Part shown: positions 9,219 through 14,910 of the stretch, one piece after another | Numbering within the stretch: position 1 is the first letter of the stretch | Layout of the letters: each line of letters starts with the position of its first letter | Source: an archaeon | GTDB lineage: Archaea; Nanobdellota; Nanobdellia; Woesearchaeales; UBA9642 | Assembly (NCBI GenBank): GCA_043806035.1 | Contig: JAZDHK010000029.1 | Span: forward strand, 1-64,000 | Direction: 5' to 3' | Length of the DNA stretch: 64,000 nucleotides | The notes under the pieces: generated by a model | Seen by the model: the letters and a program-made list of their open reading frames with translations, nothing else | Told to the model about the DNA's origin: nothing | Databases searched by the model: none | Program-made: the position numbers and the translations under genes

Positions 9219-9757
9219 CGTATTTTCTTCTCTTTGATGTGCACGAGCGAGAATACATCGTACTTGCCTAGGTGCTCACGGCCTCTCAAGTAGTCGAGCT
9301 CAATGACGAACGCGCACCCAGCAACGCGAGCTCCCGTCTCCTCGACAAGCGCAATTGCCGCCTTTGTCGCCCCAGGCCCTGCCAGGATATCATAGACGAT
9401 CAGCACCTCGTCTCCTTTGTTGAACGCATCCTTCTTTAGGGCATATTCGCCTGTGCCGTACTCCTTCTCGAACGTTCTGGAAAGAACATCCCTGGGAATG
9501 AGATTTGGTTTTCTGATTAGGCACAGAGGCACGTGCATGGCGAACGACAATGCAGCACCGATAGTGAACCCTTTCGCTTCTATCGCGGCAATCTTCGTAA
9601 TCGCTTTGCCCGCATAGTGGTTTTGTATGTCCGCTATTGCCTGCTTGTACACTGTAGGATGTTCGAGCAATGGCGTGAAATCCCAAAAAATGACATCTTT
9701 CTTAGGAAATCCATCGAATGACGCAATATATTTTTTGTATGGGTTCATGTCACTCAT
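9215..9757 (-). CDS. Adenine phosphoribosyltransferase-like protein with an atypical PRPP loop
   Basis: FPKKDVIFWDFTPLL, IEAKGF, IRKP, EKEYG and FVIELDYLRGR match APRT. The PRPP loop reads YDILAGPGAT rather than DDLLATGGT. Confidence 0.85.
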   Translation of the reverse strand: MSDMNPYKKYIASFDGFPKKDVIFWDFTPLLEHPTVYKQAIADIQNHYAGKAITKIAAIEAKGFTIGAALSFAMHVPLCLIRKPNLIPRDVLSRTFEKEYGTGEYALKKDAFNKGDEVLIVYDILAGPGATKAAIALVEETGARVAGCAFVIELDYLRGREHLGKYDVFSLVHIKEKKIR

Positions 9758-10370
9758 CCTCTACCAATATTGCTCGTGCAGGTGCAGCATCAATGCCCGT
9801 CACTTTAATAGGCAAGCAGATGAACTGGTACTCTTTCGCTTCTGCCTCGCGCAATCGCAGATTATCTATCAGGATGATGTCTTTCGCCATGAACAGCCGA
9901 TGGATGTCTGTGCTCCCCGCACGCTCAAATGACTGATAATCATACCCCAAGACAGTAATTCCTTTACTGATCAGATAGTTCGCCCCGCCAGGACTTAATG
10001 CTACATGATGAGGATTGTACTTCTCTAGAGGATCATACGAATTTTTTGTTTTCAGCAAGAGCATTGATTGTGAGATGGTCTGCTTGCTCAATTCCTTCTC
10101 CGTGATGTACTCATCGACGTTAGTCAGGTCGAGCACCTGGCATGTCCCCATCAGTCGGTCGAGGGGGACTTGATCTGACGTCCACTTATCAGTGAACAAA
10201 TAGTACGGCGCATCGATGTGCGTTCCTGCATGCGCCCCAAACTCCAGCCAGGTGAAATTACATGGCGCCTGTGGCATTCTCGCAAGGGGTTTGAGTTTCG
10301 GCTGTGCATCGTCAACCCACACAATCGTCTTTTCATTCAGCTCCATGGAAATATCGATAATGCGGTTCAT
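9750..10370 (-). CDS. Cyclase family metal-dependent hydrolase (KynB/arylformamidase-like)
   Basis: HAGTHIDAP metal motif and C-terminal LPIKVTGIDAAPARA. The start is reassigned to ATG 10370 (ATGA overlap, GGAGG RBS). Confidence 0.9.
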   Translation of the reverse strand: MNRIIDISMELNEKTIVWVDDAQPKLKPLARMPQAPCNFTWLEFGAHAGTHIDAPYYLFTDKWTSDQVPLDRLMGTCQVLDLTNVDEYITEKELSKQTISQSMLLLKTKNSYDPLEKYNPHHVALSPGGANYLISKGITVLGYDYQSFERAGSTDIHRLFMAKDIILIDNLRLREAEAKEYQFICLPIKVTGIDAAPARAILVEDE

Positions 10371-12953: not shown

Positions 12954-13786
12954 TTGTGCACGTACGTTTGACGCAGCACCCTCTCATTTTTAGGCTGATT
13001 GAATCCTTTGCTGATCAGTTCTGATGGAAGAGACAGCACCTGTCCCAGATTTTCCAGACCTGCTTTTGTCGGCTGCAGCAAATTGCCGATTGATGATATG
13101 ATCCTGCAGCAGTCGTCACGTTCGTGAGCAATCGCAGAAACGATGTTGATGTCAGGATGTGCACGCCTACATTGTGCGACAACGTCCAGGTATTCTCGGG
13201 CAGACACTGAGAATTCATCCGCACAAGGTGTGCTGTGGCCTCCTGCTGTGAAATGAGATAATTTCCAAGAAACAACCTTGCCTTTCAGCAGGTTGCCTAT
13301 CTCGGGCAGGTTCTGCATGTTCTTTCTTGTCACAATTGTGTTTATCTTGATGCCGATATGCGGATAGGTGCTCGTGATCAATGCTAGCAGGTCCAGCACC
13401 AGCTGCTGATGGTTCTTGCTCAACGGTGTCGGACGCAAGGCGTTGTGTATCGTCGCATCTGCCGAATCCAGAGGAAGCCCGATAAAATCGACAAGAGGAG
13501 CAATGCCTGGCAGCTGCTGCTCTACTAAAATACCGTTCGTCGTCAGGATGGTGATGATGCCTAGCTGTTTTGCATGCGTGAGAAGCTCGACAATGTCCTG
13601 TCTCATCAGCGGCTCTCCGCCCGTGAAGTTGATAGCTTCCAGACCCTGTTCTTTGAACAGTGCAATGCACTTTTTTGCGTCAGCAGTGCTCATCTCCTGA
13701 GATTGCGTTCTCCAGTCAGAGAAGCAAAATGGGCAGTTCATGTTGCATCTGCCCGAAACCTCGAACGTGATGTATCTGATGCTCAT
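12950..13786 (-). CDS. Radical SAM enzyme, viperin-like
   Basis: CNMNCPFC, INFTGGEP, TTNG, LPLDS, IKINTIV and SWKL. The motif order resembles viperin/RSAD2, and there is no SPASM cysteine cluster. Confidence 0.8.
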   Translation of the reverse strand: MSIRYITFEVSGRCNMNCPFCFSDWRTQSQEMSTADAKKCIALFKEQGLEAINFTGGEPLMRQDIVELLTHAKQLGIITILTTNGILVEQQLPGIAPLVDFIGLPLDSADATIHNALRPTPLSKNHQQLVLDLLALITSTYPHIGIKINTIVTRKNMQNLPEIGNLLKGKVVSWKLSHFTAGGHSTPCADEFSVSAREYLDVVAQCRRAHPDINIVSAIAHERDDCCRIISSIGNLLQPTKAGLENLGQVLSLPSELISKGFNQPKNERVLRQTYVHK

Positions 13787-14910
13787 CTTTCCCTCTTGAT
13801 TACCGCGTTGATCTCTGCCTGCAGCCTGCGTATGTCTTCTTCAAACGTGACGCAGTTCCCATTGATGTCGAGATGGTCGAATTCCGTGCTGCGTTGTTCC
13901 GCCTCTTGTGACCCTGCCAACGTCACCGCTCCAAGTGACTTCACGCGAGTGAGGGCGTATCCGTTGTTCTCTAAATGCTGCATCTTCAATGGGTTATTCG
14001 TCAGGAAGACGATATCTCTGCTGATGTGCAAGTAGTCCAGGATGACAAATGCAAGCTTGTATCCTGCATTGTCGTCTTCTCGGCGAGGATCCGGCCTGAG
14101 CCCGATGGCCTTGAATCCGCCGAGCATGGTTGTTTTGTGTATTTGTTCCGACGAATATTCTCCGCGGTGGCGCATCGCCGCCCGCGTGTAGAGATCGAAG
14201 GAGAACTCATCTTGCGAATACCCGCTCCCCATGCCGTTCTGCGTGTCAAGATGCATCAGCACAAACCCTATTTTTCCTTTCTGCTTGAACGTGTGCTTCC
14301 CTCTCGAATACATCACCTGGTTTTGGACCCAGGCTTCGAATTCGGATCCTGTCGTCGACTGAGGAGGGCGTATCGTGTTGAAATGCGCGGCAAGTTCCCG
14401 CATGCTGTCCCACTGGTATGCGCAATTGCATCGCTGCGAGCCAAACAGGAACGATGGTGAGCAGGCAGATTCGCTCCTGAAAATCACTTTTCCATCATAC
14501 ACGTCACCCACTAATCCCACGTTCACGTATTCTACACCTAAGCCGGGGAAGTACACGCAGCAGCCGATGTGTCTTGTCATATACGGTGTGTTTGTTCTTG
14601 GTGACAGTGAAAAAAGCGTCGCCCCTTTGTTGCTGATGATCAGCGCACCCGTCTCTTTGTGGATGCCAATCTCGTAGATGGACTGTAAGTCATACTTTGC
14701 CTTAGCGTTCTCCAGGACCGCCCCGAAATGGCGCATGACCTCGTCGAAGAGCTTTTTGTCAGTGATCATGACGGTCTTGTCTGGCGACTTGTCTTTTTCT
14801 GCCAACGCCAAGAGCTTTGTATAGATTCTCTTTTTCGATGCAATCCTCTTCGAGAATGCATCCATGCCGCTGAGTACTTTCTGAGTTATGGTCTTGCTCA
14901 TGTTCATCAC
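13783..14910 (-). CDS. Divergent GTP cyclohydrolase II (RibA)-like protein with an N-terminal extension
   Basis: Zn motif C-x10-C-x-C (ACSPSFLFGSQRCNC), QNGMGSG in place of QEGRGIG, and FLTNNPLK. Confidence 0.8.
   Translation of the reverse strand: MMNMSKTITQKVLSGMDAFSKRIASKKRIYTKLLALAEKDKSPDKTVMITDKKLFDEVMRHFGAVLENAKAKYDLQSIYEIGIHKETGALIISNKGATLFSLSPRTNTPYMTRHIGCCVYFPGLGVEYVNVGLVGDVYDGKVIFRSESACSPSFLFGSQRCNCAYQWDSMRELAAHFNTIRPPQSTTGSEFEAWVQNQVMYSRGKHTFKQKGKIGFVLMHLDTQNGMGSGYSQDEFSFDLYTRAAMRHRGEYSSEQIHKTTMLGGFKAIGLRPDPRREDDNAGYKLAFVILDYLHISRDIVFLTNNPLKMQHLENNGYALTRVKSLGAVTLAGSQEAEQRSTEFDHLDINGNCVTFEEDIRRLQAEINAVIKRER

Follow-up and report, generated by a model that had tools for sequence, protein, structure and literature searches.

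The window analysed here, positions 1 to 64,000 of the forward strand of contig JAZDHK010000029.1 (assembly GCA_043806035.1), belongs to a Woesearchaeales archaeon of the UBA9642 lineage, whose genome comprises 1.5 Mb on 42 contigs and is 93.7% complete. A Pfam and NCBIfam scan of the open reading frames (ORFs) in this window revealed nine genes at 8601-15353 on the minus strand that form one translationally coupled operon, with ATGA stop/start overlaps at six of the junctions. Together with the divergently oriented gene of an NrtR-like repressor they make up a cassette spanning 8601-16116, which includes an atypical cyclohydrolase termed GCH2L. Genes for GatD and GatE adjoin the operon and mark the host as an archaeon. 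A reading of the DNA made from the sequence alone had proposed that a RibA-like protein, a KynB-like arylformamidase and a lone TrpF share an operon and split the chemistry of GTP cyclohydrolase I (GCH I) between them. The shared operon is borne out, and the three genes do lie within the proposed span of 9750-14910; four operon genes and the regulator had been left out of it.

Read from 5' to 3', the operon starts with a NUDIX hydrolase (14907-15353; PF00293, 5.5e-16), followed by the nucleoside triphosphate (NTP) cyclohydrolase GCH2L with its predicted GTP cyclohydrolase II (GCH II) fold (13783-14910; 375 amino acids), a viperin-like radical SAM enzyme (12950-13786) and a P-loop nucleoside monophosphate kinase of the dTMP/CMP-kinase type with the P-loop GISGVGKTT (12351-12953). 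Next come a TrpF-like (beta/alpha)8 Amadori isomerase (11692-12357) and PRT442, a protein of 442 amino acids with a predicted type I phosphoribosyltransferase (PRTase) fold and a C-terminal helical domain (10367-11695). The last three genes encode a cyclase-family, KynB-like metal amidohydrolase that is a candidate formamidase (9750-10370), an atypical APRT-like type I PRTase (9215-9757) and a nucleotidase-like HAD-IA phosphatase (8601-9218; PF00702, 2e-14). The cyclase-family gene is annotated as an ORF at 10496-9750; its true start is at 10370, where it overlaps the stop of the preceding PRT442 gene. The database copy of GCH2L begins at the ATG at 14901. On the plus strand, the regulator gene (15499-16116) is separated from the operon by a 145-bp intergenic region, in which four palindromic ACGT-N7-ACGT boxes (15371-15460) likely serve as operator.

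GCH2L contains the stretches ESACSPSFLFGSQRCNC (C-x10-C-x-C), HLDTQNGMGSG, DLYTRAAMRHRGEY and FLTNNPLKMQ. The RibA-like motifs quoted from it earlier (C-x10-C-x-C, TNNP.K, QNGMGSG and YTRAAMRH) are all present exactly as quoted, and they are not due to chance, since 30 homologues of 51-73% identity show them with little or no variation. The match to Pfam family PF00925 reached 25.6 bits (cut-off 23.3) and was not made up of a single stretch, and the RibA models of NCBIfam gave 21-30 bits, far below their cut-offs of 148-569. We compared an AlphaFold2 (AF2) model of the protein (pLDDT 88, pTM 0.89) to solved structures using VIA-align. For RibA structures, the alignment covered the entire core (2bz0, Z 14.0 over 171 residues; 4rl4, Z 14.2 over 173). 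UTP cyclohydrolases aligned at similar scores over a longer region (7ej3, Z 14.9 over 233 residues; 7eev, Z 14.8 over 245) that takes in the N-terminal extension of GCH2L, with model residues 31-348 corresponding to chain residues 31-405. The next, unrelated structures reached a Z of 7.7 or less. A search of the ESM Atlas returned GCH II clusters only, at scores of 0.85-0.86 that serve as leads only. The modelled fold is that of GCH II, and the assignments of the trio as RibA-like, KynB-like and TrpF hold at the level of fold and superfamily.

Profile comparisons with hhalign separated the two nearest families. The RibA alignment comprised 34 sequences (E. coli ribA and cyanobacterial loci) and the UrcA-like alignment eight cyanobacterial sequences. 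The GCH2L family matched RibA with a probability of 96.3 (E 1.8e-9) and the UrcA-like sequences with 13.9, whereas RibA and the UrcA-like sequences matched each other at 99.0. Cysteines 150, 161 and 163 of GCH2L, invariant in 30 sequences, align to the RibA zinc cysteines C54, C65 and C67. The zinc site of RibA has the motif CX2GX7CXC, and PMC10366380 describes the roles of this site and of Arg128, which is needed for pyrophosphate release and for the covalent intermediate. In GCH2L the glycine of this motif is replaced by serine, the invariant D274-P275-R276 pairs with D126-E-R128 of RibA, and TNNPLK aligns to TNNPKK. GCH2L therefore shares with RibA a common fold (Z 14), a predicted Cys3 zinc site, an Arg128 equivalent and TNNP.K; it differs by an identity of only about 14-21%, a 120-residue N-terminal extension, two insertions, QNGMGSG in place of QEGRxIG and the absence of Tyr105. 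With UrcA (URC1; 7eev, 7ej3) it has in common a length of about 400 residues and the structurally aligning N-terminal extension, in contrast to the poor profile match and to the motifs of UrcA, in which the tyrosine (LVY) and the arginine are kept and TNNP is absent. The UrcA-like sequences come from eight of 41 sampled genomes (L075-L082, cyanobacterial), each with a protein of 415-441 amino acids that aligns to RibA in the same way as the UTP cyclohydrolase in the PDB (RibA 42-177 to residues ~236-385); these proteins are probable UrcA homologues.

Tyr105 of RibA is needed for formate release. The sequence-only reading had held that this tyrosine is lost in the RibA-like protein, where YTRAAMRH seemed to stand in for the RibA motif. 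In the profile-profile alignment with the 34 RibA sequences, Y105 pairs with the nearly invariant F238 of GCH2L, and TRAAMRHRGEYSS forms a 13-residue insertion specific to GCH2L that carries the invariant residues H248 and Y252. The by-eye pairing of RAY with RAA would instead put A245, a serine in most members, at this column. Neither alignment yields a tyrosine at this position, so that the proposed loss is supported, with F238 as the residue concerned in the profile alignment and not the one in the RAA motif. Because the column holds no tyrosine, GCH2L may stop at a 5-formamido product.

The TrpF-like protein matched PF00697 with 68 bits (cut-off 22.7) and NF002298 with 132 bits, below the cut-off of 215. 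In TrpF, which adopts a (beta/alpha)8 barrel, a cysteine acts as general base and an aspartate as general acid. Both residues, Cys6 in KICG and Asp132 in LLD(S/T), are invariant in 14 sequences of the cassette family, and the family-specific stretch VMGGKVLPVEVEPHAQ stands in for the usual anthranilate-side loop. The gene is indeed a lone trpF, as proposed: no other trp genes were found in the 93.7%-complete genome, in which IGPS gave only a sub-threshold match of 21 bits. The cyclase-family protein matched PF04199 (73 bits, 3.2e-20) and, at 110 bits, the arylformamidase model TIGR03035 (cut-off 223). Its closest solved structures are the uncharacterised metal-dependent hydrolases 8hmo (1e-42) and 1r61 (6e-38), followed by KynB (4co9, 6e-27). 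Compared to the KynB motif HxGTHxDxPxH, the cassette motif HAGTHIDAP[YF][YF] has the fourth histidine replaced in 13 out of 13 sequences.

For PRT442, no Pfam or NCBIfam family was found, the only match being PRTase-CE at an E-value of 0.008, and all 32 homologues are annotated as 'hypothetical'. Its AF2 model (pLDDT 91.6) retrieved HGPRT chains in Foldseek at probabilities of 0.99-1.0 (E 6e-3 to 5e-2) as well as Bcs3, which uses phosphoribosyl pyrophosphate (PRPP). The protein contains a PRPP-loop-like motif, FDEYI[ND][SA]GT, in which D200-E201-Y202 and G206 are invariant. This points to a new protein with a type I PRTase fold. The APRT-like protein passed the cut-off of NF002636 (157 bits; 125) and failed that of TIGR01090 (154.6 bits; 185.85) and of the other APRT models in NCBIfam. 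Its PRPP loop reads VYDI[LM]AG[SP]GA in 12 of 12 cassette proteins (canonical VDDLLATGGT), and on the base side FWDFT replaces FRDVT, with FWD kept in all 12, and E[AS]KGF (here EAKGF) replaces EARGF. Canonical motifs are carried by E. coli Apt and by a second APRT-family paralogue in the same genome that is 35% identical to the cassette copy. The cassette protein is thus probably not an adenine enzyme.

Of the remaining enzymes of the operon, the NUDIX hydrolase has an intact Nudix box, GRLKEGESLEQCAVREFKEETG; among NCBIfam models it comes closest to the ADP-ribose pyrophosphatase domains of NadM-Nudix proteins, all below cut-off. Viperins combine a CxxxCxxC radical SAM core with a C-terminal nucleotide-binding half of their own; the radical SAM enzyme of the operon carries the cluster motif CNMNCPFC. 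It matched NF038283 (viperin_w_prok) over residues 6-159 only, with 108 bits against a cut-off of 180, and the PADLOC model pVip over residues 6-210 (6.6e-32); its closest solved relatives are viperin (6q2p, 7e-13), the viperin-like 7n7h, BlsE and MoaA. The kinase matched TIGR00041 (2.7e-10, below cut-off) and PADLOC VakA (2.6e-5). In NCBIfam, the HAD phosphatase comes nearest to the TIGR02253 family and to GMP/IMP nucleotidase, without reaching either cut-off.

To place the cassette in other genomes, we combined several searches. A word-indexed search with GCH2L returned 260 relatives, and the 120 that were listed are 52-100% identical to the query. Fusions among these 120 comprised seven with an N-terminal NUDIX domain, one with a C-terminal radical SAM domain and one with SLOG cluster4; none longer than 657 amino acids was found, which is weak evidence against larger fusions. 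An exhaustive profile search of 1.84 billion representative proteins gave 84 matches at E <= 0.001, 46 at <= 1e-10 and 30 at <= 1e-30, many of them fragments. A clear gap in score then separates these from matches of 35-45 bits to proteins of RibA size, presumably canonical RibAs. Judged from these searches, the GCH2L family is rare and distinct from RibA. We found no relatives of the cyclohydrolase in the viral contigs that were searched, and no description of the cassette in a literature search outside subscription journals.

Restricted to one genome per species, the search gave 84 pattern matches, of which 34 encoded a relative; they represent 32 loci: 25 of a main clade (51-66% identity) and seven of a distant clade (37-42%). 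The archaeal hosts of the main clade are Woesearchaeota, other archaeal metagenome-assembled genomes (MAGs) and a Methanobrevibacter; the bacterial hosts are Parcubacteria, Sungbacteria, Saccharibacteria and other Patescibacteria, gut Clostridia, Muribaculaceae, Obscuribacterales and a Coxiellaceae MAG. When all ORFs of the 25 main-clade loci were compared using phmmer, we detected the TrpF-like gene in 20 loci, PRT442 in 19, the cyclase-family gene in 18, the APRT-like gene in 17, HAD in 15, the radical SAM gene and the kinase in 14 each, NUDIX in 13 and a HemL-like class III aminotransferase in four. The core order GCH2L-TrpF-PRT442-cyclase-APRT-HAD is constant, with HAD always last, and the full colinear order reads GCH2L-[rSAM]-[kinase]-TrpF-[AT]-PRT442-cyclase-APRT-HAD, where rSAM denotes the radical SAM gene and AT the aminotransferase. 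The radical SAM gene always directly follows the cyclohydrolase gene, to which it is fused in L006/P0010, and the aminotransferase gene in its four loci always directly follows TrpF; the position of the kinase gene varies. TrpF is missing from five loci: three stop at a contig edge just downstream (L007, L015 and L030), one lies in a different context (L019) and one is decayed (L005), having kept the regulator and the cyclohydrolase next to a 52-residue remnant of the cyclase (10119-10274). A radical SAM gene split over two frames in L017 (10133-10958) is a further sign of cassette decay. Between archaea and bacteria, the cassette proteins are 50-70% identical, and the cassette has most likely spread horizontally across domains.

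None of the seven distant-clade loci holds any other cassette gene according to the phmmer survey. Instead, a gene for a LOG-like protein of SLOG cluster4 lies immediately downstream in four of them, a methyltransferase gene is near in three, and the neighbours include genes for an integrase, Fic, HEPN-NTase, Bro-N and a cyclodipeptide synthase. The cyclohydrolase and the SLOG protein appear as a two-gene module in L023, L024, L025 and L031, which may act on its own as a minimal system for releasing a ring-opened base. In the Methanobrevibacter locus (L019, 8974-10844), a lone cyclohydrolase homologue (52% identity) lies beside an archaeal DARPP reductase (2,5-diamino-6-ribosylamino-pyrimidinone 5'-phosphate reductase; TIGR01508, 218 bits, cut-off 186). 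This adjacency fits a ribosylaminopyrimidine product derived from GTP. Relatives of GCH2L pair with enzymes acting on N-ribosyl bonds, namely SLOG/LOG-like proteins and the DARPP reductase.

The regulator of the cassette (205 amino acids) matched the winged-helix domain NrtR_WHD (PF21906, 4.9e-19) and PF00293 (6.4e-7), and reached 107 bits with the model for the ADP-ribose-responsive repressor (NF050029), below the cut-off of 400. We searched its degenerate NUDIX-like domain for a Nudix box and found none; an effector domain of this kind without the catalytic box, together with a C-terminal winged helix, is what defines the NrtR family. The gene is adjacent in 15 of the 25 main-clade loci. ACGT-N7-ACGT occurs five times in the window, with 0.68 matches expected, and none of 100 shuffles reached five. 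Four of the five boxes lie in the divergent intergenic region beside an A/T-rich TATA-like sequence. Across the 32 loci (458,693 bases), 20 of 23 boxes of the form [AG]CGT-N7-ACG[CT] are located no more than 2.2 kb upstream of a cyclohydrolase gene, in eight loci, and tandem boxes next to a TATA-like sequence precede the cassette in archaeal loci and in two loci of the bacterial candidate phyla radiation (CPR). The boxes are likely the operator of the NrtR-like repressor, and the presence of a dedicated repressor of the ligand type favours a regulated metabolic pathway. A 144-aa ORF at 15438-15872 on the minus strand, seemingly conserved by tblastn and with a low-complexity translation, was rejected as an antisense shadow of the regulator gene. 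An Rfam scan of 14 bacterial cassette loci at gathering thresholds detected tRNAs only and no riboswitch. In three bacterial loci (L012, L018 and L020), tRNA genes lie 50-950 bp past the last cassette gene, which may indicate an island-like insertion.

We then asked which known pathways the host genome could connect to. No matches above cut-off were found in the 93.7%-complete genome for FolE, FolP (PF00809), PTPS/QueD, lumazine synthase (RibH), IGPS, QRPTase, HisD or HisA/F, and the controls gave matches in 10-14 of 14 reference genomes. The riboflavin context in which GCH2L would act as a RibA is missing, as the genome has no lumazine synthase, and canonical RibA was absent in four of five other cassette genomes checked (0.9-1.7 Mb). 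We take the pathway to be self-contained; it does not feed folate, riboflavin, tryptophan, histidine or queuosine synthesis in the host genome. Two further candidate roles were rejected. A role in NAD synthesis, to which the NrtR-like regulator had drawn attention, would leave the cyclohydrolase without function in a genome that already has NAPRTase-like and NMNAT-like genes. The missing front half of histidine synthesis is not a candidate either, given the lack of HisD and HisA/F.

Taken together, we suggest that this rare, horizontally spread cassette rebuilds a purine NTP to give a modified heterocycle whose final form is a nucleoside or nucleotide, a reading we favour while giving it somewhat less than an even chance. 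GTP is our best guess for the substrate, since the profile of GCH2L matches that of RibA, TNNP.K is kept, and the Methanobrevibacter locus provides a link to the DARPP reductase. In a first step, the GCH II-fold enzyme would release pyrophosphate via the conserved arginine and open the imidazole ring at the Cys3-Zn site. The cyclase-family amidohydrolase would then remove the formyl group, and the TrpF-like isomerase would catalyse an Amadori rearrangement of the ribosylamine, yielding a ribulosylamino-pyrimidine or, after spontaneous closure, a pteridine resembling dihydroneopterin phosphate. The two atypical PRTases, both of which show changes in their substrate loops, may re-attach or exchange ribose phosphate on the new base, and the TMPK-like kinase, the NUDIX hydrolase and the HAD phosphatase may set the phosphorylation level of the product. 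The radical SAM enzyme would be an optional tailoring enzyme beside the ring opening and the HemL-like aminotransferase one beside the Amadori step. The fusions of GCH2L with NUDIX, radical SAM and SLOG domains mark adjacent steps, and the six conserved genes beyond the trio argue for a modified nucleoside or nucleotide as end product. For the trio itself, the chemistry proposed from the sequence still fits best, with a ring opening, a deformylation by another enzyme and an Amadori step.

This scheme resembles known pathways in part. In the biosynthesis of 7-deazapurine antibiotics such as tubercidin and toyocamycin, a GTP cyclohydrolase leads to a new base, which passes to a PRPP-dependent PRTase and is followed by NUDIX/HAD trimming. 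The cassette follows a similar logic, and differs in lacking homologues of QueD, QueE and QueC, in using another cyclohydrolase family and in being hosted by ultra-small organisms instead of actinomycetes. The chlamydial bypass cited as precedent is real: according to PMC4161248, RibA and a promiscuous TrpF yield 7,8-dihydroneopterin monophosphate (H2NMP). It shares with the cassette the pairing of a GCH II-type enzyme with a TrpF-type isomerase encoded apart from trp genes and a product at the monophosphate level, whereas it consists, in the same account, of an ordinary RibA and TrpF feeding FolB, FolK and FolP and the cassette of dedicated, divergent paralogues in a genome without folate enzymes. 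Ring opening and deformylation are likewise distributed over two proteins in the case of the archaeal ArfA and ArfB and in that of the rhizobial BrbF, an AFRPP formamidase that acts after a GCH III-type enzyme has formed its product (PMC9478397). ArfA (PF05165) and ArfB/BrbF (creatininase family) have unrelated folds and serve riboflavin synthesis, in contrast to the GCH II and cyclase-family folds of the cassette.

Several points weigh against our reading. The substrate is not fixed, as the modelled fold resembles UTP cyclohydrolase (Z 14.9) no less than RibA (Z 14.0-14.2). The kinases are of the pyrimidine-type TMPK/CMPK family, so that a pyrimidine NTP is still a candidate, and CTP or UTP is the common substrate of viperins. 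The link to the DARPP reductase is a single case, and the Methanobrevibacter genome also has ArfA. The invariant Tyr252 and His248 in the insertion of GCH2L could restore formate release, which would give the amidohydrolase another role, and the amidohydrolase itself has lost the fourth metal-motif histidine of KynB. Closure of the Amadori product to a pterin would leave the two PRTases without an obvious job, and amination of the ketone by the optional aminotransferase would block that closure. Finally, the NrtR-type regulator and the ADP-ribose-pyrophosphatase-like NUDIX hydrolase hint at a link to ADP-ribose or NAD that lies outside the scheme.

Among the alternatives, an extended viperin-type antiviral system fares best, although we consider it unlikely. 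In such a system, the operon would serve to produce a nucleotide analogue that terminates chains or is otherwise toxic, to activate it and to detoxify it: the cyclohydrolase, the TrpF-like protein and the PRTase would build the base, the APRT-like protein and the kinase would lead to the triphosphate, the radical SAM enzyme would form a 3'-deoxy-3',4'-didehydro derivative, and NUDIX and HAD would protect the host. The best matches of the radical SAM enzyme are viperins, and it is encoded beside a TMPK-like kinase with a match to VakA, as in pVip-kinase pairs. The patchy cross-domain taxonomy at 50-70% identity, the tRNA genes beside some loci and the integrase, Fic, HEPN-NTase and Bro-N neighbours of the distant clade would suit defence as well. 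Yet the radical SAM gene is missing in six (L008, L010, L011, L020, L022 and L032) of the 17 main-clade loci in which GCH2L, TrpF, PRT442, the cyclase and the APRT-like gene are all present, and also in the partial locus L021. It cannot be the point of a system that does without it in these loci. Unlike pVip, the enzyme stays below the family cut-off with only its N-terminal half aligned, is an optional part of a larger conserved operon and is encoded outside defence islands. PADLOC matches among the flanking ORFs of 14 loci (9/82) were all to generic domains or to the regulator itself, the cyclohydrolase had no relative in viral contigs, and a dedicated repressor of the small-molecule type better suits a metabolic operon.

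A logic like that of histidine or pentostatin synthesis, realised with non-orthologous parts, is in our view slightly less likely again. Here, PRT442 would first phosphoribosylate a ring nitrogen of ATP or GTP in the role of HisG, NUDIX would remove pyrophosphate in the role of HisE, the cyclohydrolase would open the six-membered ring as HisI does, and the TrpF-like protein would replace HisA in rearranging the newly added ribosyl group. The cyclase-family protein, the aminotransferase and the HAD phosphatase would finish the product, and the APRT-like protein and the kinase would supply or recycle the purine. Each conserved gene thereby receives a role in a known order of reactions, including both PRTases. 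The NUDIX-cyclohydrolase fusions mirror the HisIE fusions, and UTP cyclohydrolase shows that six-membered rings are within reach of a GCH II fold. TrpF and HisA are moreover homologous Amadori isomerases, as stated in PMC4161248. All of this is pure analogy, however, and homology to HisG, HisE or HisI is lacking. RibA is the family to which the cyclohydrolase aligns best (probability 96%, with TNNP.K retained), later histidine enzymes are lacking in the genome, and the cassette has no reductase or dehydratase such as coformycin and histidine synthesis need.

Salvage or catabolism of a nucleobase in the manner of the URC pathway is improbable. The URC pathway, which acts on pyrimidines, needs a PRTase and kinases before the ring is opened. 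Applied to the cassette, the APRT-like protein would convert a base and PRPP to the nucleoside monophosphate, the kinase would lead towards the NTP, and GCH2L would release pyrophosphate and open the ring; degradation of the product by the amidohydrolase and the isomerase would then recover ribose phosphate and nitrogen, with beta-alanine formed from malonic semialdehyde in loci that carry the class III aminotransferase. In its fold and its N-terminal architecture GCH2L matches UTP cyclohydrolase (Z 14.9), the PRTase and kinases would act first in both cases, the kinases are of the pyrimidine type, and the hosts are scavengers with genomes of 0.9-1.7 Mb. On the other hand, URC4 and the urea enzymes of the pathway, which is named in PMC12507026, were not seen in the cassette. 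The profile match to UrcA-like sequences is poor (13.9 compared to 96.3 for RibA), and UrcA differs in its tyrosine and in lacking TNNP. A TrpF-type Amadori step and a second PRTase would be purposeless in breakdown, and purine-poor symbionts are expected to keep bases and not to destroy them.

Least likely of all is a narrow reading of the original proposal as a FolE bypass, in which the trio would replace GCH I and supply dihydroneopterin phosphate for a pterin or folate cofactor: the chlamydial precedent (PMC4161248), a HAD enzyme that could replace the missing phosphatase and the absence of FolE would agree with it, but it is unsupported because neither FolP nor PTPS/QueD was found in the 93.7%-complete genome, and it leaves out six further genes, co-conserved in fixed order, and the repressor of a cassette found in CPR and DPANN genomes of about 1 Mb.

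Other features of the window were noted in passing. Next to the operon, a 478-aa ORF without family assignment (7165-8601, minus strand) overlaps GatE. A gene for a ZIP zinc transporter lies 4 kb from the operon (19737-20531, plus strand), and another is found directly downstream of the cassette in the Muribaculaceae locus (L029, 6229-6975); this may relate to the Cys3-Zn cyclohydrolase and the likely metal-dependent amidohydrolase, or be a coincidence. A single ORF of about 7,050 codons (40947-62111, plus strand) with Laminin_G_3, MG2, DUF2341, CARDB and Big_13 domains looks like a giant surface protein of a kind common in very small archaea. Upstream of it are two large tandem ORFs (29963-37503, plus strand), one of 931 amino acids with PKD, CarboxypepD_reg and MopE motifs and the other of 1,582 amino acids with a HerA-like (DUF87) ATPase core.

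As to the product of the cassette, we tentatively suggest, with less confidence than for the rebuilding of a purine NTP as such, a new guanine-derived nucleoside or nucleotide. Its pteridine-like or ring-opened-purine base would be re-ribosylated by the two new PRTase subfamilies and would carry, in some lineages, a didehydro-ribose formed by the radical SAM enzyme or a 2'-amino modification. It would be a new cofactor, signal or antimetabolite of ultra-small archaea and bacteria under the control of a nucleotide-sensing repressor. If the proposed chemistry is true, the cassette would represent the third independent split of GTP ring opening from deformylation and the first instance of a TrpF-type Amadori isomerase dedicated to a ring-opened purine, as opposed to one that acts on it by promiscuity. 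It adds a new clade to the GCH II superfamily, next to those of RibA and UrcA, and defines two new PRTase subfamilies; it would also define a viperin-like enzyme as a biosynthetic tailoring step. That nine or ten genes and a repressor are given over to it in genomes of about 1 Mb, at a cross-domain identity of 50-70%, argues for a function that is both important and transferable. A new nucleoside analogue or cofactor is a possible product, and the operator boxes together with the repressor offer a direct experimental route to the inducing ligand.

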